Shown piece by piece: positions 5,114 through 54,700 of a stretch of 64,000 bases of DNA. The stretch is from assembly GCF_026914265.1 (NCBI RefSeq), contig NC_069127.1, positions 1,617,682 to 1,681,681 on the forward strand, in the 5' to 3' direction. The DNA comes from Mya arenaria. Its lineage: Eukaryota. The notes under the pieces are model-generated. The model was given only the letters and a program-made list of their open reading frames with translations. It had not been told where the DNA came from and did not search any database. A program made the translations under genes and the position numbers. Position 1 is the stretch's first letter. Every line of letters starts with the position of its first letter.

Positions 5114-8100
5114 GTGAGTGCACACAGAACAGGTGCTAAATATAGACCACACTAGTACTAGTTTCAGACCCAACCCAGGGGTATGATAATAATGACATTT
5201 GATAGTATCTATATGAATATGTCATTGAAGATGAATCTCTCGGCTGATTGCTCCTTATGGAGATCAGACTTCCCATGCAATTTTAAACAACTTGGTAATC
5301 ACACACCTTATATGATTTAAATACCTTGAAATTACTAGGCCATTTTAATGCTGTCAAAGATTTCATATAAAATATACTTTGTTACATTTTCCCTGTAAAA
5401 CTCAACAAATTCATAACAAGAAGTGAATGTGATCTGTGATCGAAATATGTTTAATATATGACAAATAAACTAATTTATTAGAGGTTATTAAAATTTATTG
5501 ATATATGAAATTTAGATACAGATAATAAGATATATAACATTTTCTGTTGAGGATTCAACGTTAACCTTCTTAGAAATGACTGTTGTTTGTACGACTTCTC
5601 AAGATAATGTTTATCATGTGGTACACATAGCAGAATTCATCAACATAGTTGATAATCACTTATTAAATAAAATGTCTATACATTAATTAGTCAAGTTGTT
5701 ATTTAAAAATATAAGAAGTACATTTATTATTTTGATTTCTTAGTTTAAACAAATGAACAGATTAAAGAGAATTGTTCATGGTTTGTATAATTAACTTCTT
5801 ACGAAAAAGAAATGTTACATAATAAAGTGAAGCAAATAATTAGTGTTAAAACTAAGATACTGACAGCTGGAATCCTTCAACAAATGCTGATATTTGCTCA
5901 AATATTTGAACACCACAATTTTGAAAAACATTAGCAGTGTGATTCCCCAAAGTGTTGCTGTGTGATTAGTTGATCACTTTATTAAATGTGATGTTAACAA
6001 TGTCTTTGATAAAGGTTAAAATATCAATCTTGTGTTGTCTTTGTGACTGAGAGGTTAAAGCTTCATTTTTCTAATTTTTTCCTGACTGTACAGTGTACTA
6101 GCATGGGTTCGCTCCCCACGAAAACCAGAATATTTTTTAATACTCTTATTGGTTTTTTTTCTACAATTTCGGTATCAAAGAGTGAAATAATAATAAAATA
6201 AGTGTTTTCAGATGCATTTTGGGAAAACTAGTTTTGGTCCAAAAACATAAGCGAGTCCCTTTAAAATGATAATAATAATGAAATTATAAAGTTTAAAAGT
6301 TGAAATTCTTGAAAAAAAATGCATATTTATAATCAAATAACAGAATATAAATGAGATCATATTTATTTTGTGTATAAATATAACAAAAACAACTGATTTG
6401 TAATCTAATGAATCAAAGAATCAGACTTTTGCATGTAGAGGCATTCTTTTTTGGGGGGACTTATTCTAATGATGTCTGCTTTGACTACAGGACATGAAGC
6501 TGCCTCAGGGCAACTACCGGTCCACTATAAATGTTGGGTCAGATTCCGGCCGACCCCAGGTAGAGATGACGGACCTGCCAACAGAGAAGCCTAGGGCCCC
6601 AGTGGACGAGCCATTTCCACTACCAGAGATCCCTCACCTTCCCAGGGTTGAAACAGGTCATGATGTCATGAACCTTACACTGCATCAGGTATGTCACTAT
6701 CTGTACTGTGCATTAAACAAAATAGCAAGGCAGTATCTATTAGTGCTGCAAGATAGCCATCTATATGAATGGAATATCCACTATACTCCCTGCAATTTTG
6801 AAATTCATCCTCAAATTTAGACTAAAGTCAACTTGTTTTACTTTGAGTCAAATTTATGTGCAACTCAAGTTACCTGTGTTGGGGGAAAATGGAACTAACT
6901 GCAAATTGCTATGTTGTTACCATGAAAATCAAACCCTCACTCTGCAGACAAAAACACTTCCATATTGCTATAAAAGCTGGCTTAATCATCGGTCAGTTAG
7001 AATGTGGGGCTCTTTATAAATATTAAAAATGAAGTCAAAGTTTATTTGGAATATTTTTTTTACCCCAGTGTGCAAGAAATGGGGATGTAAAGAGCTGCAA
7101 GATCTTGTTGAGCAACATGGGCGGGAATGTGAAGAAAAAGATAAATGTTCGAGATGAAGATAACCTCACCCCGCTCCACTACGCTGCACGATACAACCAG
7201 CTCAACGTCCTCAAACTACTCATTGATAACCATGCAGGTTTATTATTTTTAAAAATCTTATAAAACTAAAATGTAACACAACATAGTTTAGTAGAGGATG
7301 TGCCCATTTCTAAACATTATATTAATTTTAAAGAAGGCAATGAGTATTACATATTAATGTTGATGGATTATTTTGGAGACTGATGATTTATCGGGAACAT
7401 AAATAAAGACTTGATATTCATGATTGTTTTTTTATGTCATTGTTTTGAAAATCAGATGACCATCTAGATGAACACAGTTTGTGCTTGGATATATTTTATT
7501 GAAAAAGACTATAAACTAGTGTAAATAAGTGGTGTCTTCTGCAGATTTGAATGCACGTGATGATGAGGACCTGACAGCCCTGCACTATGCTGCCCGATTT
7601 AAGAGGGAAACCAAGAACAGACGAGTGGATGGAGATGAAGACCAACCACAGGTATGTACTGTCAGGCAGGGCAGGAGTGTCCTGTCAGGTAGGGCAGGTA
7701 TATACTGGGGAGGTATGTACCGTCAGGTAGGGCAGGTATGTTCAAGGAAGAAGGATGGGTATGTACTGTAAGGTAGAGCAGGTATGTACTGCCAGGTAGG
7801 GCAGGTATGAACTGCCAGGTAGGGCAGGTATGTACTGCCAGGAAGGGCAGGTATGTACCGTCAGGTGGGCAGGTATGTACTGTCAGGTGGAGCAGGTATG
7901 TACTGTCAGGTAGGGCAGGTATGTACTGCCAGGAAGGGCAGATATGTGCTGTCAGGAAGAGCAGGTATTTTCTGCCAGGTAGGGCAGGTATGTACTGTCA
8001 TGTGGAGCAGGTATGTACTGTCATATGGAGCAGGTATGTACTATCAGGTAGGGCAGGTATGTACTGTCAGGTGGAGCAGGTATGTACTGTCAGGTAGGGC

Positions 8101-11100
8101 AGGTATGTACTGCCAGGAAGGGCAGGTATGTACTGTCAGGTAGGGCAGGTATTTTCTGCCAGGTAGGGATGGTATGTAGTCAGGAAGGGCAGGTATGTAC
8201 TGTCAGGTGGAATATGTATGTGCTGTCAGGTAGGGCAGGTATGTACTGCCTGGTTGAGCAAGTATGTACTGTCAGGTCATGTTTGGGTGGTAGTCGGTGT
8301 TTACAAATGACCATAGGGTATAAAAGGTCATGTGGGGGTGGTAGACTGTTTTGACACATGGCTGTCAGATAAAAGAGGTCATGTAGGTTGTTATACATGA
8401 CTATCAGGTTCAAGAGGTCATGAATGTGTGGTAGTCACTTGTTACACATGGCTGTCACATATAAGAGGTCATGAAGGAGTGGTAGTCACTTGTTACACAT
8501 GGCTGTCACATACAAGAGGGCGTGAAGGGGTGGTAGTCAGTTATCACACATGGCTGTCAGCTACAAGAGGTCATGAAGGGGTGGTAGTAAGTTATCACAC
8601 ATGGCTGTCAGCTACAAGAGGTCATGAATGGGTGGTAGTCAGTTATCACACATGTCTGTCAGCTACAAGAGGGCATGAATGGGTGGTAGTCACTTGTTAC
8701 ACATGGCTGTCACATATAAGAGGCCATGAAGGGGTGGTAGACAGTTATCACACATGGCTGTCACATACAAGAGGCCATGAAGGGGTGGTAGTCACTTGTT
8801 ACACATGGCTGTCACATACAAGAGGGCATGAAGGGGTGGTAGTCAGTTATCACACATGGCTGTCACATACAAGAGGCCATGAAGGGGTGGTATTCACTTG
8901 TTACACATGGCTGTCAGCTACAAGAGGTCATGAAGGGGCAGAAGTCAGTTATCACACATGGCTGTCACATACAAGAGGCCATGAAGTGGTGGTATTCACT
9001 TGTTACACATGGGTGTCAGCTACAAGAGGTCATGAAGGGGCAGAAGTCAGTTATCACACATGGCTGTCACATACAAGAGGTCATGAAGGGGTGGTAGGCA
9101 GTTATCACACATGACTGTCACATACAAGAGGCCATGAAGGGGTGGTAGTCAGTTATCACACATGGCTGTCACATACAAGAGGTCATGAAGGGGTGGTAGT
9201 CAGTTATCACACATGACTGTCACATACAAGAGGTCATTAAGGGGTGGTAGTCAGTTATCACACATGGCTGTCACATACAAGAGAGTAAAGCCCATAACTC
9301 TAATAATTGTAAACTTTTTTCACCTTTTTTGATTGAACCCCACCCCCAGTCAATTGTTGATGTTTGCTCATATTTCTGGGTTATTTCCTACTTTGAGTAG
9401 CAGTTATATAAGTATACAGTTATATAAGTACTCTCCTATTCCTTGTCAGGAGAATGGCGGTATGCCCCACAGTGACACAGCTGAGGACCTGGAGTCCCAG
9501 ACAAGCGTAATATCGTACCTTGTGACAAAAGGCTCAGATGTGAACGTGCGTGACCTTTATGGACAGACACCGCTACACTATGCCTGCATGAGAGCCAACG
9601 AGGTCGCCTGTCGTGAGCTGCTGAAGTACAGACAAGTCAACATTGAGGTGTGTCAATCTAGACTTCTGAGTTCCTAGAAAACAAGTTTTCTTAAAGCATA
9701 CAAAATTCAAATGAGATTCATCAATATCAATTTAAAAATAATTGCTCTTATACACAGCTTTTGTTTTTTAATTCAGTAGCTGTCAGGTGTGTTAAAGATA
9801 TAAGTGTACATAATATAAAATGAAAAATCATCGTTAATTGACAATTAAAAGCCCATTAGCTGCCACTTTAATGTAATCAAATGTAAATCATACATTTCAA
9901 AATATATAAATGGGATATGTTGTAATATGAGATTATTTCATAAAAGTATTCTTAGAAAGAAAAATTCACAGTTAAACTGTAAAAAAAAATGCTTTGATGG
10001 CTGCAGGGATCGAACCCTGGTCCTTTCGTTCAGCAGGTGGGAAATAATAAAATGCTTGTTTATTAAAATGTCATCCCTTCCAATTAATGGCCAGACTGCT
10101 GGCCTTTATAGACATCTTGATTGATGAACATCTTTGCTTCCTACCCCTTTCCTATATGCCTGGCGCCTGGCATGAAAGCAATTAGTACCCATTATTCAAT
10201 AGCTGCTGCATCACAGCAACTGGCCAAATCAGAACAAGACCCTTGTGAGACTTGAAACGTCATCAGGTGGATGGCTTTACCAACATGCAACAGTGACAGA
10301 TGACTGCATAATGTTTTATGGAACTTATTAATACAAATTATAGTTTTGCGAGAATTTAAAATATTAGAGAAATAGTTGCTGTATTCAAACTTTTATGTTA
10401 CTGTGAGTTACTTGAACATACTTTTGTCAACTAATTTCTCTAGTCAGCAGGTCAATAAGAGGTGTTTAAATGGCCTAATGCAATCAGTAATTCATTTATT
10501 TATTGGTAAATATAAACAAATACACAGGTTATACAAGAGTGTACCGCTTAAATGTATTGCATTATAATTGTCAATACTGTGGCAATTATGAAATGTTATT
10601 GTACACCAACAAGTGGCTGTATTCCTTCTTTATGAGATAATAACCAGAATGAACCTTGTTCACTAGGCAGCAGACAAGCAGGGTATGACACCCCTACACA
10701 TGGCCTCCTCCCACCATCAGACACTCATCGTGAAGATGTTGATCCGATCAGGGGCTAATCTGCGATGTAAAGATGACGAGGACACGACTCCCCTACATGC
10801 TGCGTGTACGGAGGGCAGCATCGAGATTGTGCGCAAGCTGTTCAATGCAGGTGCTAAATTGGATGGATGGGTGACAATCCAAAGTGTAAGAGTCATTTTA
10901 TATTATTTAGATAACAGGAAAGTATTATACCACGTGTTTGCTTTTTTACTTTTTTAACCTAGTTTTTTTTTGTGTCATTTCAATTTTGCAGATTTTGCTA
11001 TCCAGTATGGTCTGACAACTGATAGCTTTTGAGGATTGGTTAATCTCCGAACTATTTTGATTTCATTAAGAACATCCTTGTGATTTGATATATCATGTTT

Positions 11101-14100
11101 GTAATAAATGTTCACATATTTCTTTGGTACTTATAAATAATTTGTTAAATAATGATGCATTTAATTAAACAAATGTTCATTAGATTTTCCAGTTCCTTCT
11201 TATGTTAGTGAATGTTGTAGGAATTGTTCTTCTTTGTTTACAGATGGTAACAGACAAGGACATTGATGGGAACACATGTCTGAGTCTGGCAGTGGAGAAC
11301 GGCCATTATGAGGTGGTCAAACTGTGTCTTGAGAAACGTAAGTAGCTGTGTGCTACATTATAATCTGAATCACATTTGTTGCATTTTATGTAACCATATG
11401 TATCTTCACCAAAAGAAATAGAAATGATAAAATATATATTTTAATATTAAGTAAGCTTATCAACTAATCTGAGTGTCAGCTTGTCAATTGTGTTTAAGGT
11501 CATTCAAGTGTAAAAGGTTCAGATATAGCATGTATGAGATATACCCAAATAAGAGGCAATTCTGTGTAGTTAGCTCACTACTACCACTGACAATCCTAAC
11601 ATGCTATTTGTCATTCAGGAGCTGATGTGAACACCCCTAACACTATCTACATGTATCCGCTGCACCTTGCCGCGGTGAACGGGGACCTACGTATTGTACG
11701 CCTGCTCATAGAGCACAATGCTCGTATTGACGCCCTCAACAACGAGCAGGCTACGCCACTGCACAAGGCCGCTCAGTACAACCACATACAGGTGGTCGAG
11801 TTTCTTGTGGACAGGTGAGCAGGTCATTATTAAACAGGCCAAGGTTGAATTTCTTTCAACTTTTTTGGCAGAATTTTATCTTTTTAACTTTTGGTATTTT
11901 TCAGCATAGAATTATTTTGTGTATTGTTTACTATTTGTATGATTAGTATTGTCATAATTATCATTTCAATTTCATTCTTACAAAAAATGGGAAACAAATG
12001 TGACAGTAGTGAGATAAGTGTTAAACTCCAGTCAAAGTTGTCATAGCAATAATACTTAAATCAACAGCACAAACTCATCCATTGTGAGGGGGAGATTGAT
12101 CTAGTTGTAAGTTGTCTGACTCGATTCCACAGGAGAAAGTTCTCGTGGCCTCTAAAAAAAGGCACCAGCTATAGTCAATCTAAAATAATGTAAACTAACT
12201 AAGCTCTGCACCACAGGGAAGCTGACATTGAGCGTCGCGATGAGGAGAACTACACGCCATTGTTACTGGCTAGCGTGTACGGACGTGCACCCACTGTTGA
12301 CCTTCTCATCCAGAAGGAGGCTGATATCTCTGCTGTCGACAAGAATGACAAGACAGCCATTTTTCTAGCAGCTGAGGAGAACCAGCTGTCTGCGCTGGAG
12401 GTTTGAATAAAATTGATGTAAATTAGTGTTTACCATTCACAAGTATTGAACAAGGGGAAGATTTTGTTTTCATTTCTTCAAAGTGTTATCTTCTGCAAGT
12501 ATCATATTTCATTATTAAATTTTATAAAATGAAGATAATTTGTATTGGTCTTTAGCAAGATAGATACTGGTGAATGTGTTGAATATACAATGTATGTTGT
12601 ATATGTGTACATTCATGTATTTCAGGCTTTGTTGAAGTATGACCCAGTGAAGAATCTCATTAACACCAGTGATCGCTATGACAACGATCCTCTCCACATT
12701 GCTGCCATGAAGGGTTATCTGCATATTGTCAGGGTGTGTGGCAAATGATGTTATGTCTTAATATTCAAGATTTATAAGATCTACATGAACACTGTCATCA
12801 TAATGTATTTGTATTCTGTTAACAATCAGCAAATGACTGTTTACAATCTAACCACAAATTGATCTTACAAAGTGGAATTTTGGAGTATGATATATAAAGT
12901 GCATACCCTACGGTACCTTGTTGGTGCCTGATTGTATTGTGGGACATGCTGTACATGTTTTTAAGAACTCTTCCATATTACAGTGCCTGTTGAAGAATGG
13001 TGCCGATCTGGACAGTAAGAACGAGGAGGAGCAAACCCCGCTTCACCTGGCTGCTAAGTTTGGGAGAACCAAGTATGCTATTACTTTTATTATTACATCA
13101 TAAATGAACATGCCATCATAAAATAACATCATTATATATATATGATCTGAGAGTAAAATAGAAATTTGTTACTGCTGCTGTTTCTTTCATGCACAGTTGG
13201 TGCATTTTTCTTAAGTTAAATATTATTTGTTCACTGAACTATCTGTTTTTTTGGAGTAAAAGTTTTACCAAACAATCAGTTAATTTTTGTTTCTTGCACT
13301 GTTTGAATTAGGATGTTGATACATAGAAGTACGTGTTTCCTATCTACCCTTTAGCATAGTACGTGAGCTGGTGACACAGGATAAGAACTCTGTAAATGAC
13401 GAAGATGAGAGTTCCAACACGGCCCTTCATCTTGCGGCACTTGCAGGTCACGCCAAAGTCGCGGAGGTCCTGCTGGAGTTCGGAGCTGATGTTGCTGCAA
13501 GGTATGTAGACATGCTCAAACAGTGACTAGAAAAACACATTCAAATTGTCTCTCTCCCTGTTCAAATGAGACTGGAAGCCAGTTGCATAGAGGTAGCACT
13601 TTTTAAAGTACCACATATGAGCCCCATTTACCTAAAGCAATACCCAGATCATAAAAGGGCTTATAGAACAATTTAATTAATAAAAAAGAGTTTTACGGCT
13701 CATTTCAAATGCAAATTTTCTATGCGACGCTATTCACATGGCAGCACAATTGTAGCCATGGGAACCTATGATTATGAGCAGTTTTGAGAAAATTATAAAA
13801 TATAACACTGGTGTGTGTTTTAGGAATGTGAGTATGTGGACCCCACTGGACTGTGCGGCAGCCAAGGGTTGGATGAAGACGGCAAAGGTTCTCCTGGAAG
13901 CTGACTCCCCTATTGACCCTATGGACAAGGCAAAGGTATGATGGCTTAACTAGGGTTGGGATGGACAAGGCAATGGTATGATGGCTTAACTAGGGTTGGG
14001 ATGGACAAGGCATAGGTATGATGGCTTAACTAGGGTTGGGATGGACAAGGTAAAGGTATGATGGCTTAACTAGGGTTGGGATGGACAAGGCAAAGGTATG

Positions 14101-17100
14101 ATGGCTTAACTAAGGTTGGGATGGACAAAGGAAAGGTATGATGGCTTAACTAGGGTTGGGATGGACAAGGCAAAGGTATGATGGCTTAACTAAGGCTGGG
14201 ATGGACAAGGTAAAGGTATGATGGCTTAACTAGGGTTGGGATGGACAAGGCAAAGGTATGATGGCTTAACTAGGGTTGGGATGGACAAGGCAATGGTATG
14301 ATGGCTTAACTAGGGTTGGGATGGATAAGGCAATGGTATGATGGCTTAACTAGGGTTGGGATGGACAAGGCAATGGTATGATGGCTTAACTAGGGTTGGG
14401 ATGGACAAGGCAAAGGTATGATGGCTTAACTAGGGTTGGGTTGGACAAGGCAAAGGTATGATGGCTTAACTAGGGTTGGGATGGACAAGGCAAAGGTATG
14501 ATGGCTTAACTAGGGTTGGGATGGACAAGGCAAAGGTATGATGGCTTAACTAGGGTTGGGATGGACAAGGTAAAGGTTTGATGGCTTAACTAGGGTTGGG
14601 ATGGACAAGGCAAAGGTATGATGGCTTAACTAAGGTTGGGATGGACAAGGCAAAGGTATGATGGCTTGACTAGGATTGGCATGGACAAGGCAAAGGTATG
14701 ATGGCTTGACTAGGGTTGGGATGGACAAGGCAAAGGTATGATGGCTTAACTAGGGTTGGGATGGACAAGGCAAAGGTATGATGGCTTAACTAAGATTGGG
14801 ATGGACAAGACAAAGGTATGATGGCTTAACTAGGGTTGGGACGAAAAAGGCAATGATATGATGGCTTAACTAGGGTTGGGATGGACAAGGCAAAGGTATG
14901 ATGGCTTACCTAAGGTTGGGATGGATAAGGCAATGGTATGATGGCTCAACCAGGGTTGGGATGGACTGAGGTTTTCTTTTAAACTATAAGAGTGAGATTG
15001 AGCTGAATTATCCTGGTTTCATTTAAGTGAAACATACCACAAGTGTCATCCTTTTTACGATGTCACACTGAGAGCAAAAGTATGAAATTAAATGAAAAGT
15101 AAATAAAACTTACCTTCACATATATGCATGTAGCACATAACATATAAGTGTTTCTTCTTATTTGTAGACAACACCCCTTCACTTAGCTGCCAGATATGGT
15201 CACGTCGAGGTTATCAACCTTCTCCTTGACTGGGACGCCGATGTGGAACAACGAGACTCCGATGGCAACAACTGCCTTGATCTTGCAATCGACCATAACA
15301 ACTCGTATGATATTTGCTTTGTTTTCTTTGTGTAAAACTCATCTAGGCCATATAAAATTGTTTTTATGTTTAGGGTCAATCCTTATTATGAAAACTTATA
15401 TAGCTTTCCTGAAAAATCAGACAAACCCCCCCAAAAAACATTACTAAATGAGTGACATCCTATGTAGATTCTCAATTGTCAGATTGTATTTCCACTGCAA
15501 AATGGGTTCAAATTAAACTTGTAATTAAGTGTGTTGATCATGGGAGTCAAACAGAATGCTTCTTTTTCTGATATCAAACGCCAAGAATATTAGAACAAAC
15601 TATGAAGCATGTGGTTTACACTTGTGTTCTATAGTTGGAATAATAGACAAAGGTGATTAAAAATCTTCAGCAACATTGATGATCATATAAAATGTTTTTC
15701 AATCGTGAAGACACTAAACATAGAAACGATTGGGTATGGGTCTCTGTGTTTACCCCGGTACTTAAAGTTTTCTTTCACTTTTACACTGATGTTATTGCAT
15801 TATTGTATATAACCACTCAACTAACATTAAGGATCCATAACTGGGCATAAACAATCTTTGATGTTGAAATTGCATACTAACATATTTTGATGCAGAACAC
15901 CTGATTTCTAACAATTATCTGTTTCGTAGATTGTCAACAAACATGTAGAGTGACATGTTCTCTAATGTAACAATTTAATCAACAACTACAATGAAATTCA
16001 TAAACAAGTTCATTTTATAAATGACCAGTTGTTTATTTTGAAGAATAAATAAAATACAAGATTGCACTAGTTCAAAATGACTGCCATTCCAGGAATGTAG
16101 CGACCGCGATCATCAAGTCTGACTACTGGCATGAGGCCCTACGCAACCACACCCTGGACCTCATTACCAACAGACATGACACGCCCATGAGGAAACTCAT
16201 CAGGAAAATGCCAGGCAAGACAAATGTCTTATACATGTATATGCCAGGATTGCTTATAAGGACTTTTATTTAAAGTATCAGGGTTCGAATTTAACTTTGA
16301 GGAGCACTCGCAAAATTTAGCGAGTGCATTTTGAGGCAACTCGCAAAATGACAAATCAACTTGCAATTTCATTATTTGCTTTATTCCCTTATAATATTGT
16401 CTTATTAAAGTAGGAATTAACACCTAAGACATATTATGAATATTAAAAAGTATCAATCTTGAGTGACTCGACTACTAGAACTTGTTGATGGCTTATTCTA
16501 TTTGGGGGTTATGGAAAGACTCGTCTGATGCTAGCAGCTTTTTGATAACAAAGCTGTCCAATAATTTGACATTGTTCACTTTGTATATTTACCCTCGCCA
16601 TCGGTTAATTTAAGACCCATTCGACAAGCACGCTACATATTTCATTAAGTCTATAAGTATTAAAAACAATAAAATAATAAATTTAAAATAAAAAAGCAAC
16701 AGTAAATGTAGCGTTGATACTTTGGACCATGAAATATATCGATCAACGAAGTCTATTCATTTTGACAGGATGATGGGGTTTACATATAGTGCGCAAAAGC
16801 GCTAAATTTAGCCAATGATTGAGCTAGGTGATTACGTCATTCGTATTTACTTTGTATTATGCACACCTCGGAGCATCCCGGAAAGATTCGAGATAAAACT
16901 TGGCCTTTTCCGTATTTGTTCTATTTTTGTAAACCTACTTGAGCGTGACTCCGTACTGTCTTCTTTATACCGGTAGTGTAAACATGCCACTTATAGGCTG
17001 TTTACACTCGACTACATATCGGAATTAAGTTCATGTTTATTCTACTTTCCTTTTAACATTTTGTGGTCTAGAAAAGCCACTCGCAGAATTTTGCGAGCTT

Positions 17101-27318: not shown

Positions 27319-27399
27319 GACGGCATAGTGTCGTTGCGCAAAAACATTAACGTTGGGCATATCTGGGCACACCTGTTGCCAGAAATGATACACTCACAG

Positions 27400-27866
27400 A
27401 AATGTCCATAACTCTGACTTGGACACACATTTTCAGTAAGGTCCATAACTCTGACTTGGACACACATTTTCATCAAGGTCCATAACTCTGACTTGGACAC
27501 ACATTTACAGTAAGGTCCATAACTCTGACTTGGACACACATTTACAGTAAGGTCCATAACTCTGACTTGGACACACATTTACAGTAAGGTCCATAACTCT
27601 GACTTGAACACACATTTTCATCAATGTCCATAACTCTGACATGGACACACATTTTCAGTAAGGTCCATAACTCTGACTTGGACACACATTTACAGTAAGG
27701 TCCATAACTCTGACATGGACACACATTTACAGTAAGGTCCATAACTCTGACTTGGACACACATTTACAGTAAGGTCCATAACTCTGACTTGGACACACAT
27801 TTTAAGCAAGGTCCATAACTCTGACTTGGACACACATTTTCAGCAAGGTCCATAACTCTGACTTAG
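27400..27866. repeat. 37-bp minisatellite (about 13 units; ggtccataactctgacttggacacacattttcagtaa)
   Basis: The repeat lies in the intergenic region. The ORFs at 27267..27578, 27542..27763 and 27802..28026 are repeat artefacts. Confidence 0.95.
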
Positions 27867-29157: not shown

Positions 29158-29701
29158 TAAACATCAGGATTAATCCTAAAATCAGGATTTAGGGCTTTTA
29201 ACTTCAGGCTATTGTACTGTTGTAAAGATTATTCTTATGCTCGGGTATCTGCATCAAAAACGGAAGGAAGTATCTTGAAACGACTATAATGACATTTTGA
29301 AAAGCCCCGTAACTCTGCTTATGGCATGAATCCCTCGTACTCAAACAGACCCCGTACATGTTTCAGGGTTTACCATTATCTGCTGTTAGACCCCCCACCC
29401 ACCTAATACAGGTTTTGGCGGAGACAATACGCCCATGCTATGATGTGTAGCAAGTTTCGTAACTCTGGTTTTAATATTTGTTGAGTGTTTGCCCTTTGCA
29501 TACATGTAGTTAACCGTTAAAGTAGCCGCGATGGCGTCCACTTACGGGACTATTGGTTGATCCTTCCTTGCATTATGGATCATTCAGAAGCTACTTGGTG
29601 TAAAAATAGTCCAAAATAAACAAACGTCGCATGAATCTGTATTTATGCATGTAATTTGCAAAAATCGCCAACAAGATAACAGTCAGACATAAACGAGCCC
29701 G

Positions 29702-29923
29702 CTATCCGACTAGCTGTGAGTTCGAGGGCGTCATGGTATCCGTGGTGATTTTAAAGTTCCGGAAATACGTGTACGTGTCGTGTGGGCTGGCCCAAGAGCT
29801 GTCGCCGCCCCCGAAGAACGTGGAGAAGAAGAGCCCGTCTATGTCGAAGCCCGTGTTGTCCCGCATTATGATGTCAGTCACATGCACCTCCGCGTGCCCG
29901 TCCACCCACAGCTTGATGTAGCC
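29702..29923 (-). CDS. lyase-like gene exon 6 (terminal), stop at 29702-29704
   Basis: Acceptor tttctccacag|GGC. Peptide GYIKLWVDGHAEVHVTDIIMRDNTGFDIDGLFFSTFFGGGDSSWASPHDTYTYFRNFKITTDTMTPSNSQLVG*. Confidence 0.7.
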   Translation of the reverse strand, partial: GYIKLWVDGHAEVHVTDIIMRDNTGFDIDGLFFSTFFGGGDSSWASPHDTYTYFRNFKITTDTMTPSNSQLVG

Positions 29924-32900
29924 CTGTGGAGAAATGTAGTAGTTACATGGTTAAATACATTTTAACACAAACATCGTTACGCTATTAACACATCTATGGT
30001 TTTAGTAGTATATCTCGTAGTTTGTATCCAAAACTTCATAATATATATCAAATGTGTCGAGTGCTTTACATGTACACTCAAAGTATAAGGTTTTCATGAA
30101 TACTGTTATAGAGAGGTTGGCAAAACTCGAACAAGTTCATCACTACTCTCATATACGGAGCTACTGAATTAGAAAGTACTTGACAATGGCACCTTTTGTC
30201 CCGAGTGTGCATTAAGGTGGACCTCTTGGCGGATGTGATGCCATTTGTGGTGGTGGAAGCGCCAGGCACCCCGCCCAAGCTCGATGCCCGTGGAGGGCGT
30301 GCAGTGCACGTGCATGTAGGAGGCAGTGCTTGAGTGGTCGTACTTGCCGCACCATGTGTCGAAGGACGGTTCTTGGTTATGGGTCACGTACGTGTACACC
30401 TGAAAAGTTGGAACGCGCCATGTTTTAGGTCCTGTGTTTCTGGGACCGGGGCCTTTCTGGATGGTAAGAATGCGTCTTTTTGACTTAATTGGACATTCAA
30501 AATTTGCGTATAAATTAAAAAAATGACTTATAAAGTAGACAGAAAAAAAACCAGGTGGGATAGCCTTTGTTTCTTAAAGAGAACAACAACTCTTCAATTA
30601 CATATAAAAAGAGAATTGGTTGGCCAACTTTTATTCGTCGGTTTCTTTTTTCAAACTTAAGATTGGGAAATTTATTTTTACAGTTGATTTTTTATATATA
30701 TATATTGGCATTAGGAATTCTGCCCCAAATTGCTCAGAACAAGATTGACGTCTTATTCAAATGACAGTTCATCGAAGGACAAGGCTAGTAGCAAACACAA
30801 CCATTTAGTCATTCATGCTGTTCCATGTTCCATCACCTAATATAACATATCACCTCGCCATCCCCTAGCGGCCGCCACATGAGCCGTGTTGAGAAGCAGG
30901 TGTCCTTTATCCGACCGCCTGAGCAGTCACGGGTGCCGCCCCACAGTCCGGGCAGCTTGCCCCCACGATTCCAGCTAAACGAGTCTGGGAAATACACCTG
31001 CAATTGTGAACATATTTATTTACTGGTGGAATGCTTTGATTTACTTTTAAATACATGTACGCTGTTCATGTACATTGATTTTGTTCGAGTCTTTGTTTCA
31101 CAAACCTAAGACCTAAATTGGTAGGATGGAAGAGCCTTGTGTTCGATTAGCGCTTGTTTGAATAACGGTCGATGCGTTCTTGTATATACTTCAGAAAAGC
31201 ATGATAAGTCAGAAGTCACTGGAATACTCGAGTAACAACTAATGTAGTTAATTCTCGTGGATAGCGTTGATAAATACGGTATGTCGTGGTTGGTCGTGTC
31301 GTGGTTGGTCGCGTACTCTTCCCGTTCTCAAGTGTGTGGATGGTGTGGGTATGTCGTGGTTGGTCGCGTACACTTTCCGTACTCGAGTGTGTGGATGGTG
31401 TGGGTATGTCGTGGTTGGTCGCGTACTCTTCCCGTTCTTGAGTGTGTGGATGGTGTGGGTATGTCGTGGTTGGTCGCGTACTCTTCCCGTTCTTGAGTGT
31501 GTGGATGGTGTGGGTATGTCGTTGTTGGTCGCGTACACTTCCCGTTCTTGAGTGTGTGGATGGTGTGGGTATGTCGTGGTTGGTCGCGTACACTTCCCGT
31601 TCTCGAGTGTGTGGATGGTGTGGGTATGTCGTGGTTGGTCGCGTACACTTCCCGTTCTCCAGTGTGTGGATTGTGTGGGTATGTGGTGGTTGGTCGCGTA
31701 CTCTTCCCGTTCTCGAGTGTGTGGATGGTGTGGGTATGTCGTGGTTGGTCGCGTACACTTCCCCTACTCGAGTGTGTGGATGCTGTGGGTTTGTGGTGGT
31801 TGGTCGCGTTCTCTTCACGTAGTCGAGTGTGTGGATTGAGTGGGTATGTCGTGGTTGGTCGCGTACTCTTCCCATTCTCGAGTATGTGGATGGTGTGGGT
31901 ATGTGGTGGTTGGTCGCGTACACTTCCCGTACTCGAGTGTGTGGATGGTGTGGGTATGTCGTGGTTGGTCGCGTACACTTCCCGTACTCGAGTGTGTGGA
32001 TGGTGTGGGTATGTCGTGGTTGGTCGCGTACACTTCCCGTTCTCGAGTGTGTGGATGGTGTGGGTATGTCGTGGTTGGTCGCGTACTCTTCCCGTTCATG
32101 AGTGTGTGGATGGTTCTCGAGTGTGTGTATGGTGTGGGTATGTGGTGGTTGGTCGCGTACACTTCCCGTTCTCGAGTGTGTGGATGGTGTGGGTATGTCG
32201 TGGTTGGTCGCGTACTCTTCCCGTTCTTGAGTGTGTAGATGGTTCTCGAGTGTGTGGATGGTGTGGGTATGTCGAGGTCGGTCGCGTACTCTTCCCGTTC
32301 TCGAGTGTGTGGATGGTGTGGGTATGTCGAGGTCGGTCGCGTACACTTCCCATTCTCGAGTATGTGGATGGTGTGGGTATGTGGTGGTTGGTCGCGTACT
32401 CTTCCCGTTCTTGAGTGTGTGGATGGTTCTCTAGTGTGTGGATGGTGTGGGTATGCCGAGGTCGGTCGCGTACTCTTCCCGTACTCGAGAATGTGGATGG
32501 TGTGGGTATGTCGTGGTTGGTCGCGAACTCTTCCTTTTCTTGAGTGTGTGGATGGTTCTCGAGTGTGTGGATGGTGTGGGTATGTCGAGGTCGGTCGCGT
32601 ACTCTTCCCGTACTCGAGTGTGTGGATGCTGTGTGTATGTCGAGGTCAGTCGCGTACACTTCCCATTCTCGAGTATGTGGATGGTGTGGGTATGTGGTGG
32701 TTGGTCGCGTACCCTTCCCGTTCTTGAGTGTGTGGATGGTTCTCGAGTGTGTGGATGGTGTGGGTATGTCGAGGTCGGTCGCGTACTCTTCCCGTACTCG
32801 AGTGTGTGGATGGTGTGGGTTTGTGGTGGTTGGTCGCGTACACTTCCCGTTTTCGAGTGTGTGGATGGTGTGGGTATGTCGAGGTCGGTCGCGTACTCTT

Positions 32901-34410
32901 CCCGTTCTCGAGTGTGTGGATGGTGTCGGTATGTCGTGGTTGGTCGCGTACACTTCCCGTACTCGAGTGTGTGGATGGTGTGGGTATGTCGTGGTTGGTC
33001 GCGTACTCTTCCCGTTCTCGAGTATGTGGATGGTGTGGGTATGTGGTGGTTGGTCGCGTACACTTCCCGTTCTCGAGTGTGTGGATGGTGTGGGTATGTC
33101 GTGGTTGGTCGCGTACACTTCCCGTACTCGAGTGAGTGGATGGTGTGGGTATGTCGTGGTTGGTCGCGTACTCTTCCCGTTCTCGAGTGTGTTGATGGTG
33201 TGGGTTTGTGGTGGTTGGTCGCGTTCTCTTCACGTAGTCGAGTGTGTGGATGGTGTGGGTTTGTCGTGGTTGGTCGCGTACACTTCCCGTACTCGAGTGT
33301 GTGGATGGTGTGGGTATGTCGTGGTTGGTCGCGTACTCACCTCGTACTTATGCAACTCGTACACGAATGTGAGGAGGGTGTGTCTATATGGTGGTTTGTC
33401 GTATACTTTCTCCGTTATTGTACAGATGGTGTTGTTATGACGTGGTTGGTCGGTTACTCACCTCGTACTCGAGTGTTAGTGTAGTGTAGGTATGTGAAGC
33501 CACGGAACTCGGCGTGCCGTAGAACTGGGCGCCCCTGTGGCGACCGCTCCCGGAGTAACTACCTGAAACATGTGTTATAAGTATTCATTTGTCAAGGAAA
33601 ATATGACTGTTCGTGACCGAGCTGGGTACTTAAAAGTTACTCAACGATACTGATAGCTAAATAGTAACTCTACGAGACAGGCATAACGACGTTGGACATG
33701 TCTCACGTTACATTAACTTTAAGGTGCATTAATTACTTCCATGAATATACCAGTTGCACCGTACCTTTTGCATAAAAGACCCTGAGGACGTACTGTCCGG
33801 AGTGCTCGGGGTCCTCTGCAAGTGTGAGCGAGTCGTCCGCGCCTATGCCAAACTTCCCCTGGGTGTCCGTCATGTGGAAGCCCTGCTGCAGTACGTCTGT
33901 GATGTCTTTGTTCGACGTCTCGTGGCTCCAGCTCCACAGCGTCGTGCCTTGAATGGTGCAGACAGTTGCCGTCAAAACTGGCTAACGTCGATACCCAAAG
34001 CACATGCATTTACGTTTAACATATCGCTTTAAAGTGATAATCGATTAGTGAGTTGTATTGTGGGTTCCCACGATGAAATGTAATCCTTATTGATACCCAT
34101 TCCAAAAAAAAAATACATCATAAAGGCCTCTCGGGTTCGATATGATGCAAACCTCGGCCGAGTGGTCCCAGGTTCGATACATTGCGGACCTCGGTCTACA
34201 AGTCGGACTTGTTTACCAACATCATAGAAACGATGGATACTGGGACAAAACTTCGTTCCACCGCTTGTAATAAACTTCAAACTAAACCACTATTGAATCG
34301 AATAAGTTAAATGCCACCAACACTGCTGGTTGTAACGCCAATAAGACTAGAAACTTACCATGCCCTCCACGCACCAATACAAACAACAGTATAAATTGAA
34401 ACTGCATCAT
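29702..34410 (-). CDS. secreted polysaccharide-lyase-like protein (resembles the PL14 / heparin-lyase-I-like Polysacc_lyase family; tentative), 6 exons, 312 aa
   Basis: The six exon models below sum to 939 nt with every junction in phase. The deduced protein is MMQFQFILLFVLVRGGH|VLTATVCTIQGTTLWSWSHETSNKDITDVLQQGFHMTDTQGKFGIGADDSLTLAEDPEHSGQYVLRVFYAKG|GSYSGSGRHRGAQFYGTPSSVASHTYTTLTLEYE|VYFPDSFSWNRGGKLPGLWGGTRDCSGGRIKDTCFSTRLMWRPLGDGE|VYTYVTHNQEPSFDTWCGKYDHSSTASYMHVHCTPSTGIELGRGAWRFHHHKWHHIRQEVHLNAHSGQK|GYIKLWVDGHAEVHVTDIIMRDNTGFDIDGLFFSTFFGGGDSSWASPHDTYTYFRNFKITTDTMTPSNSQLVG*. It has an N-terminal signal peptide and a C-terminal FFGG motif. The W/G/H-rich core recalls mollusc PL14 alginate lyases and fungal/bacterial heparin-lyase-like proteins. 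The family call is made from memory, not from a search. Confidence 0.6.
30193..30399 (-). CDS. lyase-like gene exon 5
   Basis: Acceptor aacttttcag|GTG, donor CAAAAG|gtgcca. Peptide VYTYVTHNQEPSFDTWCGKYDHSSTASYMHVHCTPSTGIELGRGAWRFHHHKWHHIRQEVHLNAHSGQK. Confidence 0.7.
30854..30997 (-). CDS. lyase-like gene exon 4
   Basis: Acceptor ttcacaattgcag|GTG, donor GGCGAG|gtgata. Peptide VYFPDSFSWNRGGKLPGLWGGTRDCSGGRIKDTCFSTRLMWRPLGDGE. Confidence 0.7.
31280..33470. repeat. 2.2 kb satellite, 55-bp unit (about 40 units), inside intron 3 of the lyase-like gene
   Basis: The unit is ctcgagtgtgtggatggtgtgggtatgtcgtggttggtcgcgtacacttcccgtt. Two subfamilies are present (gtcgtggttggtcgcg versus gtcgaggtcggtcgcg), and some units carry a 22-bp internal duplication. 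It decays towards exon 3 (33462). All ORFs at 31216..33484 on both strands are artefacts. Confidence 0.95.
33462..33562 (-). CDS. lyase-like gene exon 3
   Basis: Acceptor tgtttcag|GT, perfect donor GAG|gtgagt. Peptide GSYSGSGRHRGAQFYGTPSSVASHTYTTLTLEYE. The downstream intron holds the 2.2 kb 55-bp satellite. Confidence 0.65.
33765..33977 (-). CDS. lyase-like gene exon 2
   Basis: Acceptor ttagccag|TT, donor AAAG|gtacgg. Peptide VLTATVCTIQGTTLWSWSHETSNKDITDVLQQGFHMTDTQGKFGIGADDSLTLAEDPEHSGQYVLRVFYAK. Confidence 0.65.
34359..34410 (-). CDS. lyase-like gene exon 1 (signal peptide MMQFQFILLFVLVRGGH)
   Basis: ATGATG start codons at 34410 and 34407, then a hydrophobic core, then a perfect donor G|gtaagt. 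A TATAAAT motif lies about 45 bp upstream on the minus strand at 34455-34461. Confidence 0.65.
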
Positions 34411-48700: not shown

Positions 48701-51700
48701 TGGATCATACAATATGTGTGTTGATTTAATGTGTGGCACCTCTAGCCCTGACTTTATTCTTATTTATCTGTTCACACATCAGCTTAAAAGTCATGCTCTG
48801 ATTGTCAAGAATGTCACAATAATTTTTTTTGAGGTATATTTGTATACACTATTATTCATGTGTACAATTATTAGTCAACATGATAAATAACTTCAATTTA
48901 TAAATCATACTACTATAAGAGTTTTTACTGTACTGACATCATGACATCATGTTATATAATAACTAATTGTAAAATCGACAAAAAAAAAAAAAGCCTTGTT
49001 TTGTTTTACATTGAAATAATCGCATGTTGAGAGTGTCAACAATTCGTTATACTGAAAACCACATCACACCACTCACCTCAGTTTGTAGTTCTTCCAACCT
49101 CATCTTGAGTCTGTGTATCTCGTCCTCGCGGGCCTTGACCTTGCGGGCCCCCTTGTCTAGTAACTCCTGGTTCTCTGCATACCACTTCAATTTCCCCTTC
49201 AACTTCTCCACCTCACCCTGGTACTGCCGCTCCAGTGCCTGATGTAGGAAAATAAATGATGAGCACGTATAAACTTGTATGTCAAATAGTTAACTTTAAA
49301 GGTATATTTGAAGGAGATTATTACTTGTTGTGTGGTGTTAACCATAATGGTCCAAGGTTGCTAATGTTAATTTAATGGTTGAAACAACTTGAATATTTAA
49401 AATTCATTTTTCTTTTCTGATCTAACATTATCACAGGTTTCAAAAAAACTAGCCCTGTTATTGAAGTGATAATCAACTTCATCTTTAGACCTCAGACACA
49501 AACGAAACCCTACATATCATGTAGATAGACCTCCCACACAAACCAACTGCACATACCATGGCCTCCTCAGACTTGAGGGTCTTGTTCTGTTCTATTGTTT
49601 TCTGCAGCTGTTCTCTCTCCAACACAAGTTTTTCAACATGTTTCTCAAGCTCAGTGCGCGAGTGCTGCAGGACGCCCATCTCCCGTGACAAGGCGTCACA
49701 TGTTTGCTACAAATTCATAGCAAAGTTATGATAAAGTTTTATAGGTTGAGGTGCCAAAATTATACTTCAAACAAAAAGCATATAAAACCATTCTGCAGTC
49801 ACAGTATTTTGTCTCGCACCCAGGATGTAAAGGGGGTAGGATGACATTGAACAATTGTTATGTGTTTCACTTCATGAAAGGGATCACATATGCAATATAA
49901 TATATATATATGTAGAATTTATCACTATTGCTATATTGAACTTTTAAAATTTGAATGTACAACAGCTAACATCCTATGAAAAGAATAATATTAATCAGCA
50001 TTATGACCAAATGATTGCCACCACAGCCAATTTGCCCCACCCTTGCCTATGTGCCCCACCCTAGCCTATGTAACCTACCCTAGCCTGTCCAAGCTCTCCC
50101 TCCAGGTGTGCTACGGCCTCGCCTGTATTCCCTGCAGCGAGCCTCTGCTGTGCAGCTGGCCCCGTTATCAGCCCCTTGTTCTGGTACTCAGCCTCCTTCT
50201 TTTCAAGCTGGGTCCTGGAACCGGTACATGAACATGTAATGCTTATTTAGGACAATGGTGAAACATGACATGATACTTGTACATCTGTCTCTGACTTTAA
50301 GCAATGTCAACTATCAAATAGGCATTTTTACTACAATTTTGTTCCACTCTATGAAACTACATTGTTCATGGATTGTAACATTCTGTATAGGAATATGGAA
50401 GTGTTGACTGCTGCAAACTAATGTTTTAATTTTAACTTGACAAAACTAATGCAATAAAACAAAATGAAAAAAAAATGTTCTAAAAGCAACAAACTTGGAG
50501 AGCTTAGCGTATACAGTAAAACAAGACAGGGTTAAAGGGTTATAGACAGGGGAAAATAAATGGGAAGCACAAATCAACTTTATATAAGTAATTAGACATT
50601 TCACTCAATTAATTACACTAATATATAAATTTGACTTAACATTAAGACATTTTTCTAGCCATTTAAGAAAATTTAGCATTGTTCTGATCAAATCACAGCA
50701 ACTCAAACCATACTTACAGCCTCTCTTTATCAATTTTTATTTTTCTACAAAATGAAAAGACACAATGGGCAACACAAACAGAACATTCTTAGGCCTACTG
50801 GTACCAGTACCACATATATCACATTGAAATCATACAACAAGTCTTATAGTAGTAATTAAACATCCATGTAGCTGAAAATGTCAGCACAGTTACTGTTAAT
50901 TATCACCAGGATTGCACTAGGTAATGCAACATGCAAGCAGTTTGCGTCACATGCTGCTTTACATGCTGTAAATGAATCCAAAGTACATGTGCAAGGACAC
51001 CCCTGAACTCCCTGAGGTTTTGTGCAGCTCGTGTGTGGAGTTACTATAACACTCCTTAAGCCCTTAATATCTGAGGTTTGGGGCCGCAATGAGGACATCC
51101 CTGCACCCTTGTACTGGATGATTTGAGGCCCCTGTAAGACTGGCTGGACGACTTCTGTACGTCAAGTACCTGAGGTTTGTTGAATCTGTGATGACACCCC
51201 TGCAAACCCCATACCATTGGCCACTGTGAGGACACACCTGTATCTCCCATACTAATGATTTGTGGCCTCTTTGAGGAGACCCCTGTATCTCCCATACCAA
51301 TGGTCTGTACAATACCCTGTACCTGAGGTTTGATGACTGCGACACTTTACTAGAGCATCCTGCACCCCTGTATCCAAGGTTTGTGGCCTTTTTGAGGAGT
51401 TACTTGAACACCCCTACATTCCATACATGAGGTCTGCAGTCTCTGTAAGGACACTCTTGCGCCCGATGTATGTGGCCTGTGTAAATACACCCCTGAACCT
51501 CTGCCCTTCATACCGGAAGTTTGCACCTGCCCTACCCCCTTTGTACCAGAGGTTAGCAGCCTTCTGTGAGCCCCCCCCCAACTTTTTAGCAGAGGTTTGC
51601 ATATACATCCTCCCCCTCATATCAGAGGTTTGCAGCCGTCTGTGAGGCCATACCTGCCACCCCCCTTTCGTACAAGAGGTTTGAGTCCATCCCTGCCCAC

Positions 51701-54700
51701 ATTCCTTTCATACTGGTGGTTCGCAGCCTTAGTGAGGCCATCCCTGTCCCTCCCCCACTCTTTATAACAGAGGTTAGTGGCCTCTGTGAGGTCAACCCTG
51801 CACCCCGCATACCTGAGGTTAGCTGCTTCTGTGAGGAGTTTCTGATTCTCCTGGAACATCTGGTCCTCCAGCTGCTTGCTCTGCTGACGGAGATTCTTCA
51901 TCTCATTGTACAGACGCTTGTTCTCCTATATACGAACAAGCATGGGAAAGTGAGGGAATATTTGGTAAAAATATCAATAGGGATTTCTTACTTCTGCAAC
52001 CTGTGTCTCTGTGTCAATGATTTTGGCCAAAACCCATTGTTTCTTTTTGTTTACAAAATGTTCATAAAAAACATTACTGTTAACACCAATTAGGACTGTT
52101 TTCATTATATCTACTAACAACTTTACAATGTGGTAAGTTTTCTTACACTGTAACCCTGCCCTGTGTGTTCATACCTGCTGGTACCCAGCTATGAGTGTTT
52201 CTTGCTCCTTGACTTCCTTCTGTAGTCCCTCAAGCTGGTCCTTATCGAGACCCTCCAAGGGTTCCCCTGCCAGCACTCGTCTCTTAACCACACCATCACC
52301 CTCACCAGATATCTGGACATGAGAAAAATCATGATATTTGTTAATGCAAGTTTAACTGATTTGGTAAACACTTTGAAAAACATATCATCAATGAAATTTG
52401 GCAATAGAAAATAAAGGTTGAACCTAAAAGAATATATGCATTTTTTATATGACTATATGTTTTCAAAGCTGTTAGTTAATAGGGGTAAGCAGTAAGTCCT
52501 AAACTTCAGAAAGGCTATGGCACAAATAAAACTTTTTAACCATTTCATGAAAAATGACATTAATATATGTATAGACAAATGCTACATGTATTCTACAGTA
52601 CTATGTTTACATTAAACTCAGTCAAGGTCTATGCCAAGCCATGCACCAACACATGCACTGACCTTGGCCTTGAACACAACCACACACACTGACCTTGAAC
52701 ACCCACACCCGCGCTGACCTTGGCCTTCAACAACCCCACATGAACACTGACCTTTGCCTTCAACAACCCACACACACACTGAACTTGGCCTTGAACACCC
52801 CCCCCCACACACACACACACCGACCTTGAGCACCCACACACACACACACACTGACCTTGGCCTTGAGCACAAAGTTCTCTTGTCTGAGTTCAGCCAACTG
52901 CTGTTCATACTCCAGTTTCTGTCCCTCCAGCTGCCGCTCATAGCTCCGTGCCTGGGATTCCAACTCGCCTAGGGAATGGGTACACAAAAAATAACAGTTG
53001 AAATGCAAATAATGACCATAGAGCAAATTTATCATGCAAAGAATAACAGTCATGCAGCAATGCAGCAAATAAATTACTACAGTCGAACCCCGTTGGCTCG
53101 AATTCCTAGGGACTGGCTACATAACCTCGAGCCTCGGAAATTTTGAGCCAAGAGGGAATGTTTACATTCAGTATATAGAAATAGGTCCCTTACATCCAGT
53201 TCGAGCCAACGAGGAATTCGAGCCAAGCGAGTTCGAGCCAACAGGGTTCAAATGTCCTCACATTATAACATTTTTGCAGCATATATCATTCATGCAGCAA
53301 AAAAATGCCACGCAGCAAATAATTATAATGAAACAAATTAAATAAAGAACTAAACATATACTTTGAGAATCTATAACTGACAGAAATTTTAATTAAATTG
53401 TTAGTCGTAAGGAACAAAAACAATTAACTAAATATTTAACAGTAACAAACAGAATGTGTGGCTCATGACTGAGTTTGTAATAAAATATTATTTGTCATGA
53501 ATAAGTACAACATATCTTCAAACACACAAAATAAATCACTTTAGAACAACCAAATACATTCCAGGACCTTTAAGGCTGGCTATAACCTGGTCCTTATCTT
53601 CCTCTGGCTGTTCCTTCTCCTTAAAACTGGCTGACACTGAGGGCTCATCCTCTGAATACTTCACCTGCACAAAATTTCAAGATATTGTATATGTTGGATA
53701 TTTTTTATGTTAAAATACTCTCTTTTATTGAAGATATCTATTATGGAAAGAAATGTATTGAACAAAACTGTGCAACATTTTCAATTAATTAAATATTCTT
53801 AATGATTACATCAAATACAGAATATTTTCAAACAAATACCATTTACATTCTTACATTATCTCTAATCACAAACAAAAGCTGATTTGGGTATAAATTCAAA
53901 GAAAACAAAAGTAACCAAACAAATGCTCCACCCGTCCACGGACAGTACCTGTGGTGCCGGCATGCCAGCAAAATGGTCTTTGATATACTTGGCAAAGGAC
54001 TCAACAGATGCATCCAGCTGAGTTGCTGCCATGGTCCCCAGCTTCACCTGCCGTGATGACTGGCTCCCTGCATGATGGAAACTTACTGTGATATTTGTTT
54101 TCAAGTACCAATATCAATGGCCCTTATTGATATGCCAATATACTCACACCAAGAGCTCCATTGAATAAAAATTCCAACACTTAATAATTTTTTTTTTTTT
54201 TTCTCACTTTCAGTGATTTGTGCATTCTCATAAAATGGAATATTTTGACAAAAAGCATGACTGGAGATGAATAACACTGAAATCTTCAACACAAGCTGAT
54301 ATTGTCTGACAATGCATTATTCTGTATATTAGTTAACATACCAATGATTTTGTTCTTGGCTATTTCTGCAGGGCTCCATAGCTTTTGAGACAGCCCCTTC
54401 TTGGTCTTTTTCCCCTCCACATCGGAAGGGCCAGCCCTGCCGACCTTGGCTGGGGACTGGGCTGGGGAGGCACTAGTGTCCTTATATCCTGAAGATTAAA
54501 ACATCAAGTATGGAATAACAGAAAATATTTACAAAACTGAATCAAATTATATTGCCTTAGAATGATAATCAAAGGTCAAGCGAAGAACTGATATAAGAAA
54601 ACTAATCATTCCTGTTTAAGTACTGATAAAATAAAGCAATTCTTTGTATGCTGTTGTATTACGGCCTCTGCACATTATCATAATAATATAACAGCCAGAG

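Follow-up and report, generated by a model that had tools for sequence, protein, structure and literature searches.

A donor-spanning minisatellite in a TRPA1-like gene of Mya arenaria and the recurrence of such arrays at other 5' splice sites of the same stretch

What is a tandem array whose first unit lies partly inside an exon, and why should such an array sit on a 5' splice site? The question is raised by a stretch of 64,000 nucleotides of Mya arenaria (contig NC_069127.1, positions 1,617,682 to 1,681,681), hereafter called the window and numbered from its first letter, in which a 40-bp minisatellite begins in the last bases of an exon of a TRPA1-like channel gene and continues into the following intron. 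We propose, with a probability of roughly 0.75, that the element is a boundary-spanning intronic minisatellite of the type found in intron 7 (IVS7) of human F7, in IFI6 and in the amphioxus "mirages", that it originated by slippage or unequal exchange, and that it is tolerated through use of the first donor. Descriptions of this layout already exist for human genes and for amphioxus, a point absent from the sequence-only reading that preceded this analysis.

The host gene lies on the + strand, where ankyrin repeats and then an ion-transport domain are encoded between about 7060 and 23800. Its best protein matches are named TRPA1 homologues from a snail, Lingula, Octopus, Capitella and Mytilus (50-61% identity; 55-61% for the snail, Lingula and Capitella), Pfam Ank families span the 13935/15168 junction, and the database matches carry PF00520. 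With ankyrin repeats, a six-helix ion-transport domain and TRPA1 proteins as its nearest named relatives, the predicted product has the attributes of a TRPA1 channel, and we call the gene TRPA1-like. The exon of interest (NVSMWTPLDCAAAKGWMKTAKVLLEADSPIDPMDKAK, 13824..13935, + strand) is supported by the splice model, the Pfam Ank families and the homologue alignment; it is the 11th exon of a partial model that starts at about 7060 and whose upstream exons are uncertain. According to the splice model, which was derived from the coding segments, the intron extends from 13936 to 15167 in phase 0, from the authentic 5' splice site GTATGA (13936..13941, + strand, context AAG/GTATGA, the slash marking here and below the splice boundary) to the acceptor tag/ACA at 15168. 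The unique 3' part of the intron (14967..15167, + strand) ends with the acceptor …tcttatttgtag/, and the next TRPA1-like exon (15168..15304, + strand, TTPLHLAARYGHVEVINLLLDWDADVEQRDSDGNNCLDLAIDHNN…), for which the splice model is joined by homologue alignment, has an orthologous exon in contigs L001 and L006. The authentic donor is moderate, with 7 of 9 consensus matches and a simple score of 4.2.

The position of the exon end matters for everything that follows, and the sequence-only reading had itself named an exon ending elsewhere as a finding that would overturn it. The end at 13935 is upheld: the joined peptide …SPIDPMDKAK/TTPLHLAARYGH… (DKAK/TTPLHLAA) aligns without any gap with seven homologues, from an annelid (Capitella), a cephalopod (Octopus), a coral, a brachiopod (Lingula) and a gastropod, and contig L003 has an intron-less homologue in which PIDPMDWGKTTPLH is continuous. 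Only the first donor, at 13936, yields the conserved protein. Since the exon boundary is fixed by both the splice model and the gapless alignment, unit 1 unites the final 15 bases of coding sequence with the authentic donor.

In the output of Tandem Repeats Finder the minisatellite is a single array over 13921-14966 of the + strand, with a period of 40, 26.1 copies, 93% matches, no indels and a score of 1847. When the array is listed in register, 26 full units (13921-14960) are followed by a 6-nt partial unit, ATGGAC (14961-14966), which closes the array distally, and then by unrelated sequence; the left edge is sharp, with no unit-like match upstream of 13921. Unit 1 reads ATGGACAAGGCAAAG (M D K A K, 13921-13935, the 15 nt that end the exon) and then GTATGATGGC, the donor side with its GTATGA. 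It equals the consensus of the 40-bp unit (ATGGACAAGGCAAAGGTATGATGGCTTAACTAGGGTTGGG) exactly. Mismatches to this consensus number 0-5 per unit (divergence about 3.6%), the last three units (24-26) being among the most diverged, and in the per-unit table the variants are irregular and partly common to non-adjacent units. Downstream of the real donor lie 25 pseudo-donors spaced 40 nt apart. The GT is kept in 25 of the 26 units (24 of the 25 downstream), and the identical 9-mer AAG/GTATGA is found in 18 of the 26 units including the authentic one, that is in 17 of the 25 downstream units. The GTATGA core is less variable than the remaining unit (0.013 versus 0.029-0.051 changes per site per copy), on small counts. 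The earlier description of a 40-bp unit made of exon tail and authentic donor, reiterated in about 26 near-identical copies at 40-nt spacing, is in agreement with the Tandem Repeats Finder output, the unit and donor tables, the splice model and the homologue alignment.

A straight read-through of the junction translates as …MDKAKV followed by a stop, GTA TGA being in frame, and the sequence-only reading was right that use of any downstream donor would bring a TGA into the reading frame. Its further statement, that such mis-splicing would create substrates of nonsense-mediated decay (NMD), is a correct deduction from the frame and not an observation. No open reading frame of at least 40 amino acids lies inside the 40-bp array on either strand, and the predicted folding of the RNA of the junction with its first four to five units is no stabler than that of shuffled sequences (z = +1.3). 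The whole window gave no matches to Rfam at gathering thresholds or with ARAGORN, and 36 nt of the unit, scanned against metagenome contigs for exact matches, had 0 matches, so that no independent copy of the array was found. Recursive splicing at AAAG/GTATGA was considered and rejected, the sequence upstream of each AG being purine-rich with no pyrimidine tract.

Arrays of this form are documented in human genes. In F7 IVS7, IFI6 (6-16) intron 2, CBS IVS13, LMNB2 and PDGF intron 4, the first monomer spans the exon-intron boundary (PMC1557585). The variable number tandem repeat of F7 intron 7 has a 37-bp monomer, composed of 4 bp of exon and 33 bp of intron, in 5-9 copies; only the most upstream of the 5-9 identical donors is used, the pseudo-sites being functional when tested (PMC1557585). 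For IFI6, the section of the same source that treats this gene reports constitutive use of the authentic donor and of the two most proximal of 25 pseudo-sites (PMC1557585). The TRPA1-like array shares with these cases the head-to-tail monomers within an intron, the first monomer spanning the boundary and pseudo-donors identical to the authentic site, and it has the same count of pseudo-sites as IFI6. It differs in its exon contribution (15 nt, against 4 bp in F7) and in its setting, since the human cases concern other genes in a vertebrate, whereas this array belongs to a non-vertebrate genome, in which it is represented by a single haplotype. Moreover, any downstream choice in the TRPA1-like array would lead to an immediate stop, whereas the part of PMC1557585 devoted to IFI6 states no consequence for the frame.

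To establish the direction and the age of the event, the orthologous gene of two related species, obtained from a scan of metagenome contigs, is informative (relative A, contigs L006, L007 and L008; relative B, contigs L004 and L009). In relative A the exon peptide is 100% identical to that of the window in L006-L008 and ends CCCATGGACAAGGCCAAG/GTAGG; in relative B the orthologous exon (L004) is 95% identical. The intron position is conserved in L006 and L004, with 287 nt to the next exon in L006, and the 40-bp unit is absent from the contigs L006-L008 of relative A and L004 of relative B. Because the relatives have the same exon tail and the same intron position without the 40-bp unit, the exon tail is older than the array. 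These comparisons of contigs show the exon copy as the template of the array, not the reverse, and the array itself as a recent acquisition restricted to the species of the window.

The relatives also carry arrays of their own. Relative A has, at the same TRPA1 donor, an unrelated unit, G-rich and 21-23 bp long, whose first bases are the GT itself (GTAGGGGCACACCGGGGGGACTG/GTGGG…); it is present once in L006 (732-760) and at least 2.1 times in L007 (2409-2458), as counted on short-read contigs. Both L007 and L008 (4196-4249) end about 50 nt past the exon, in repeat or G-rich sequence, and L005 (1-85) starts in poly-G in the same intron. At the orthologue of the exon-8 donor, L008 (2695-2802) contains 2.2 copies of a 49-bp unit made of 15 nt of exon tail (CTGCCCATTGTCAGG) and GTAGGT, the second copy having CT instead of GT; there is no array at the exon-8 junction of the window. 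In relative B, the intron that follows the MDKAK exon holds a third, unrelated array with a 37-bp unit, which starts about 45 nt past the donor. Finally, L009 (2506-2652) of relative B contains 2.0 copies of a 73-bp unit that joins an intron tail and its acceptor (ttctaacag/) to the first 25 nt or so of the exon that follows (SIYDEEDQ, versus SLYDDEDH in the window); the contig ends within this duplication, which is a candidate boundary case of the acceptor type. Taken together, these sequences indicate that the tendency to form arrays is common to the clade and that individual arrays turn over fast.

The same kind of junction was then sought across the window, where 38 introns could be modelled: 22 of the TRPA1-like gene, 14 of CEP162 and 2 of a gene for a polysaccharide lyase of family 14 (PL14), the last two genes being on the - strand. 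Each junction was represented by a 24-mer probe, from -12 to +12, that was searched for in its own intron. Self-copies were found for 6 of the 38 donors, distributed over the three genes, and for none of the 38 acceptors of these modelled introns. The human cases are described as isolated genes, whereas here 6 of 38 modelled donors are concerned within 64 kb. Three recurrences, at 7652, 51812 and 52855, had been claimed by the sequence-only reading and all three are found again, those at 51812 and 52855 belonging to CEP162 on the opposite strand, not to TRPA1; the donors at 50078 and 33461 are two additional ones.

The second donor array of the TRPA1-like gene (7649..8277, + strand, donor G at 7652) has a 23-bp unit, GGGCAG/GTATGTACTGTCAGGTA, in about 25-27 copies. 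It starts at the CAG/GTATGT of the exon that ends at 7651, so that the exon shares only CAG with it, and it offers two donor-like sites per unit. One of its pseudo-donors, at 7736 (+84 nt), keeps the frame of the following exon, and its use would lengthen the product by 28 residues with no stop. The PL14 gene (window 29700-34000, - strand), of a lyase family that is unusual in animals, is located between the TRPA1-like gene and CEP162; its Pfam assignment has E = 1e-38, and among solved structures the nearest to its product is that of the Aplysia alginate lyase, 5GMT. Its array (31297..33495, - strand, donor G at 33461) repeats about 37 times a 55-bp unit derived from an exon tail of about 34 nt (…HTYTTLTLEYE, exon 33562-33462) and GTGAGTAACCGACCAACCACG; the GT is lost in most units. 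CEP162, which was aligned exon by exon with the Saccoglossus protein (best match, 45% identity), carries three arrays on the - strand. That at 52646..52870 (donor G at 52855) has 7 units of about 32 bp formed by the exon tail GTGCTCAAGGCCAAG (VLKAK, 15 nt) and GTCAGTGTGTG, the VLKAK part being joined to GTCAGTGTG. That at 51100..51836 (donor G at 51812) is old and degenerate, with at least 10 units at a spacing of 33-54 nt that combine 24 nt of exon tail, CCTCACAGAAGCAGCTAACCTCAG, with GTATGC. The smallest, at 50025..50090 (donor G at 50078), contains 3.3 copies of a 19-bp unit with about 10 nt of exon tail, …ACAGGCTAGG/GTAGGTT.

The sense strand is rich in G in five of the six donor arrays (31-44% G versus 10-21% C), the exception being the C-rich PL14 array. 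A constant length of exon tail, which might have been the footprint of a mechanism, was looked for and rejected, the lengths being 3, 10, 15, about 15, 24 and about 34 nt. This picture, of six donors in three unrelated genes of one genome, is close to that of the amphioxus mirages, which were reported in Adh3, TnC, the globins BflGb6/9 and PGBD5 (Canestro et al. 2002, through the accounts in PMC3087553 and PMC3902484). In the parts of these two accounts that concern them, the mirages are minisatellite-like tandem duplications of exon-intron boundaries with units of 10-160 bp, many with splice signals; their length differs between haplotypes, splicing and mRNA are undisturbed, both 5' and 3' boundaries are affected and the mechanism of origin is called unclear (PMC3087553, PMC3902484). 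As in the mirages, the unit unites part of an exon with the adjacent intron including the splice signal, and several unrelated genes of one genome are concerned. In contrast to amphioxus, where both kinds of boundary are involved, the junction arrays of the window are at donors only (0 of the 38 modelled acceptors), the sole acceptor-type candidate being that of relative B.

Is the number of arrays on donors greater than chance would give? Random intronic 24-mers were not a useful control, 29% of them having a second copy; since the arrays occupy much of the intron space, this comparison is uninformative and was replaced by a null model of placement. In that model a founding duplication of length u falls uniformly within an ancestral intron of length L0, so that the probability of spanning the donor is about u/(L0 + u). 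Of 11 tandem arrays counted inside the 38 introns, 6 span a donor, against 0.85 expected (Poisson-binomial P = 4e-5; P = 2e-3 when the null probabilities are doubled). With the same expectation of 0.85, no array spans an acceptor, and the difference between donors and acceptors has P = 0.03. The test is post hoc and was made in a single window flagged for the very same feature, and the P values are indicative only. Within that limit, the placement supports the statement of the sequence-only reading that the recurrence exceeds chance.

The junction origin does not hold throughout the window: at 8411-9283, 27396-27864 and 36253-40308, an exon next to the array was looked for without success. The array at 8411-9283 (51 bp x 17) shares its TRPA1 intron with the 23-bp donor array, from which about 130 nt separate it, and is unrelated to either splice junction of this intron. 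The array at 36253-40308 extends over 4 kb, with about 169 copies of a 24-bp unit (TTTTCTCCGTTAGCACCGTGTCCC) and a higher-order period of 48 bp. Satellite-like tandem units of 145-151 bp with a common GTGACCTTGACCTT(T/G)G core are found at 40913-41994 and 45485-45807, one set just past the 3' end of CEP162 and the other inside a CEP162 intron; they probably form a repeat family derived from a mobile element. A 69-bp repeat at 56212-56414 (2.9 copies, 98% identical) has a reverse complement that resembles a tRNA T-arm (GGTTCGATCCACACC…); no tRNA was called in it by ARAGORN, and it is possibly derived from a short interspersed nuclear element. As a separate observation on the TRPA1-like gene, the best splice model of the intron after …KLIRKMP, at 16215 of the window, has a GC donor (ccag/GCAAGA), and a related species has a GT donor at the same place (ccag/GTATGA, L001).

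How could the array have formed, and how would it be borne? A segment of 40 bp, with 15 nt from the end of the TRPA1-like exon and 25 nt from the start of the intron, would have been duplicated in tandem, the probable trigger being slippage between two ATGGAC hexamers 40 nt apart, and replication slippage or unequal exchange would then have extended the array to 26 units. The partial ATGGAC at the distal end is what slippage between these hexamers would leave, and we take it as the likely signature of the process. The most upstream donor would be the one committed to splicing, in which case all other units would be removed as intron; were a downstream unit used instead, the retained GTA TGA would be in frame and the transcript would be an NMD substrate rather than the message of an altered channel. 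Precedents for such silent pseudo-donors are given by F7, IFI6 and the amphioxus mirages. No other role is suggested by the searches for reading frames, RNA structure, Rfam families and tRNAs. Most probably the array is without a function of its own, because it is absent from the relatives, because older arrays lose their donors or decay, and because arrays at the same donor share no sequence between species; the loss of GT in the PL14 array and the degenerate state of the CEP162 array at 51.8 kb both argue against an obligatory function. We infer the slippage mechanism, the exclusive use of the first donor and the neutrality of the array.

Several points weigh against this interpretation. The exclusive use of the first donor is drawn from analogy, not from observation. 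Pure neutrality leaves the placement of the arrays unexplained, with 6 of the 11 intronic arrays on donors and 0 on acceptors where about 0.85 would be expected for each, and a related species has built a different array on the same TRPA1 donor. The lower variability of the GTATGA core, despite its small counts, is a further point. A bias in the birth, growth or retention of arrays at 5' splice sites, beyond simple slippage, is therefore likely to be at work.

Such a bias could have a mutational cause, and it is possible, although we hold it clearly less probable than the interpretation above, that the 5' splice sites of this lineage are hot spots for the birth or growth of minisatellites, through pausing of the polymerase, R-loops or breaks where exon and intron meet, the non-template strand being G-rich. 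This proposal agrees with ours on what the array is and differs on the cause of its location, which would be a mechanism directed at donors and not a duplication placed at random. The contrast between 6 of 38 donors and 0 of 38 acceptors with junction-templated repeats, the placement P of 4e-5, the unrelated G-rich array of relative A at the same TRPA1 donor and its 49-bp array at the exon-8 donor all speak for it, and the G-richness of five of the six sense strands fits the idea of R-loops or pausing. Yet the PL14 array is C-rich on its sense strand, the exon tails vary in length and leave no constant footprint, a duplication of the acceptor type occurs in relative B, and the statistic was obtained after the fact from one window chosen for this feature; selection alone could also explain the asymmetry, as acceptor-spanning arrays would mis-splice. 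The broader form of the idea, in which 5' splice sites are preferred in the lineage for the birth or the retention of minisatellites that arise repeatedly and independently, even at the same donor in sister species, by mutation coupled to transcription or splicing, may be held just as tentatively. If the donors were on the contrary retained by selection, a train of U1 small nuclear ribonucleoprotein sites might strengthen a weak donor or shield a long intron from premature cleavage and polyadenylation. The exact 9-mer in 17 of 25 downstream units, the GTATGA core as the least variable part, the only moderate authentic donor and the over-representation of donor-bearing arrays are compatible with such a role, which we nevertheless regard as improbable: relatives with an identical exon lack the array, older arrays lose their GTs (PL14) or degenerate, the arrays of different species at the same donor are unrelated in sequence, and youth alone predicts a high identity of units. 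In F7, moreover, the neighbouring intronic sequence is presented as having no autonomous regulatory element in the part of the source that deals with it (PMC1557585).

The in-frame stop suggests yet another role, a regulated unproductive splicing in which proximal pseudo-donors would be used at a controlled rate to send part of the TRPA1 output to NMD. Each choice of a pseudo-donor does give an immediate TGA in frame, but this stop is automatic wherever GTATGA follows a phase-0 boundary, and the stop-free, in-frame pseudo-donor at 7736 of the 7652 array indicates that it is not a general design; with the array not conserved in the relatives, we consider this role about as improbable as the previous one. 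An artefact, by which the array or its copy number would result from mis-assembly, deserves mention since tandem arrays of 1 kb are error-prone and the short-read contigs of the relatives break in this same intron. It appears very unlikely in view of the irregular variants partly common to non-adjacent units, which a collapsed or reiterated array would not be expected to have, of the five further junction arrays with different units in the window, and of the same type of structure in the independent contigs of the relatives. The reverse order of events, finally, would have the array come before the exon end, either by exonisation, with the MDKAK tail recruited from an intronic repeat, or by birth of the intron through duplication. 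The unit does contain AG/GT, the proto-splice site that duplication models need (PMC3087553), and in the Rogers model an intron is gained by tandem duplication of a segment containing AGGT (PMC3265369). The likeness to this model is limited to a tandem duplication including AG/GT that makes extra splice signals. The TRPA1-like intron pre-exists in L006 and L004, its acceptor is in unique sequence, not in the repeat but 200 nt past the array, and neither a new intron nor a new exon results; an intron running between the GT and the AG of adjacent copies and missing from the relatives, as the model predicts, is not seen in the array. Since orthologues conserve the exon tail, across phyla, and the intron position, in relatives that lack the array, both exonisation and intron gain by duplication are rejected, and we give this order of events almost no weight.

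The interpretation as a boundary-spanning minisatellite makes the TRPA1-like array a further case of a layout already described, in a new gene and probably in a new host. By itself it adds little, the layout and its usual harmlessness being documented for F7, IFI6, CBS and the amphioxus mirages. What goes beyond the earlier accounts is how densely such arrays occur and that they sit on donors only (6 of 38 donors in three unrelated genes, 0 acceptors), together with the different array on the same donor in a related species; the cited sources describe individual genes, not genome-wide counts, and it is this density and placement that deserve to be followed across the genome. Such arrays are also a trap for annotation, as gene predictors may choose a false donor, and assemblies of short reads are interrupted there. 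If the pattern were true genome-wide, it would suggest a connection of 5' splice sites with the genesis of tandem repeats and would offer hundreds of natural tests of how the spliceosome chooses the first among identical donors. Boundary-spanning arrays would then be a systematic class of the genome, with a strong bias for donors over acceptors, and not scattered accidents.

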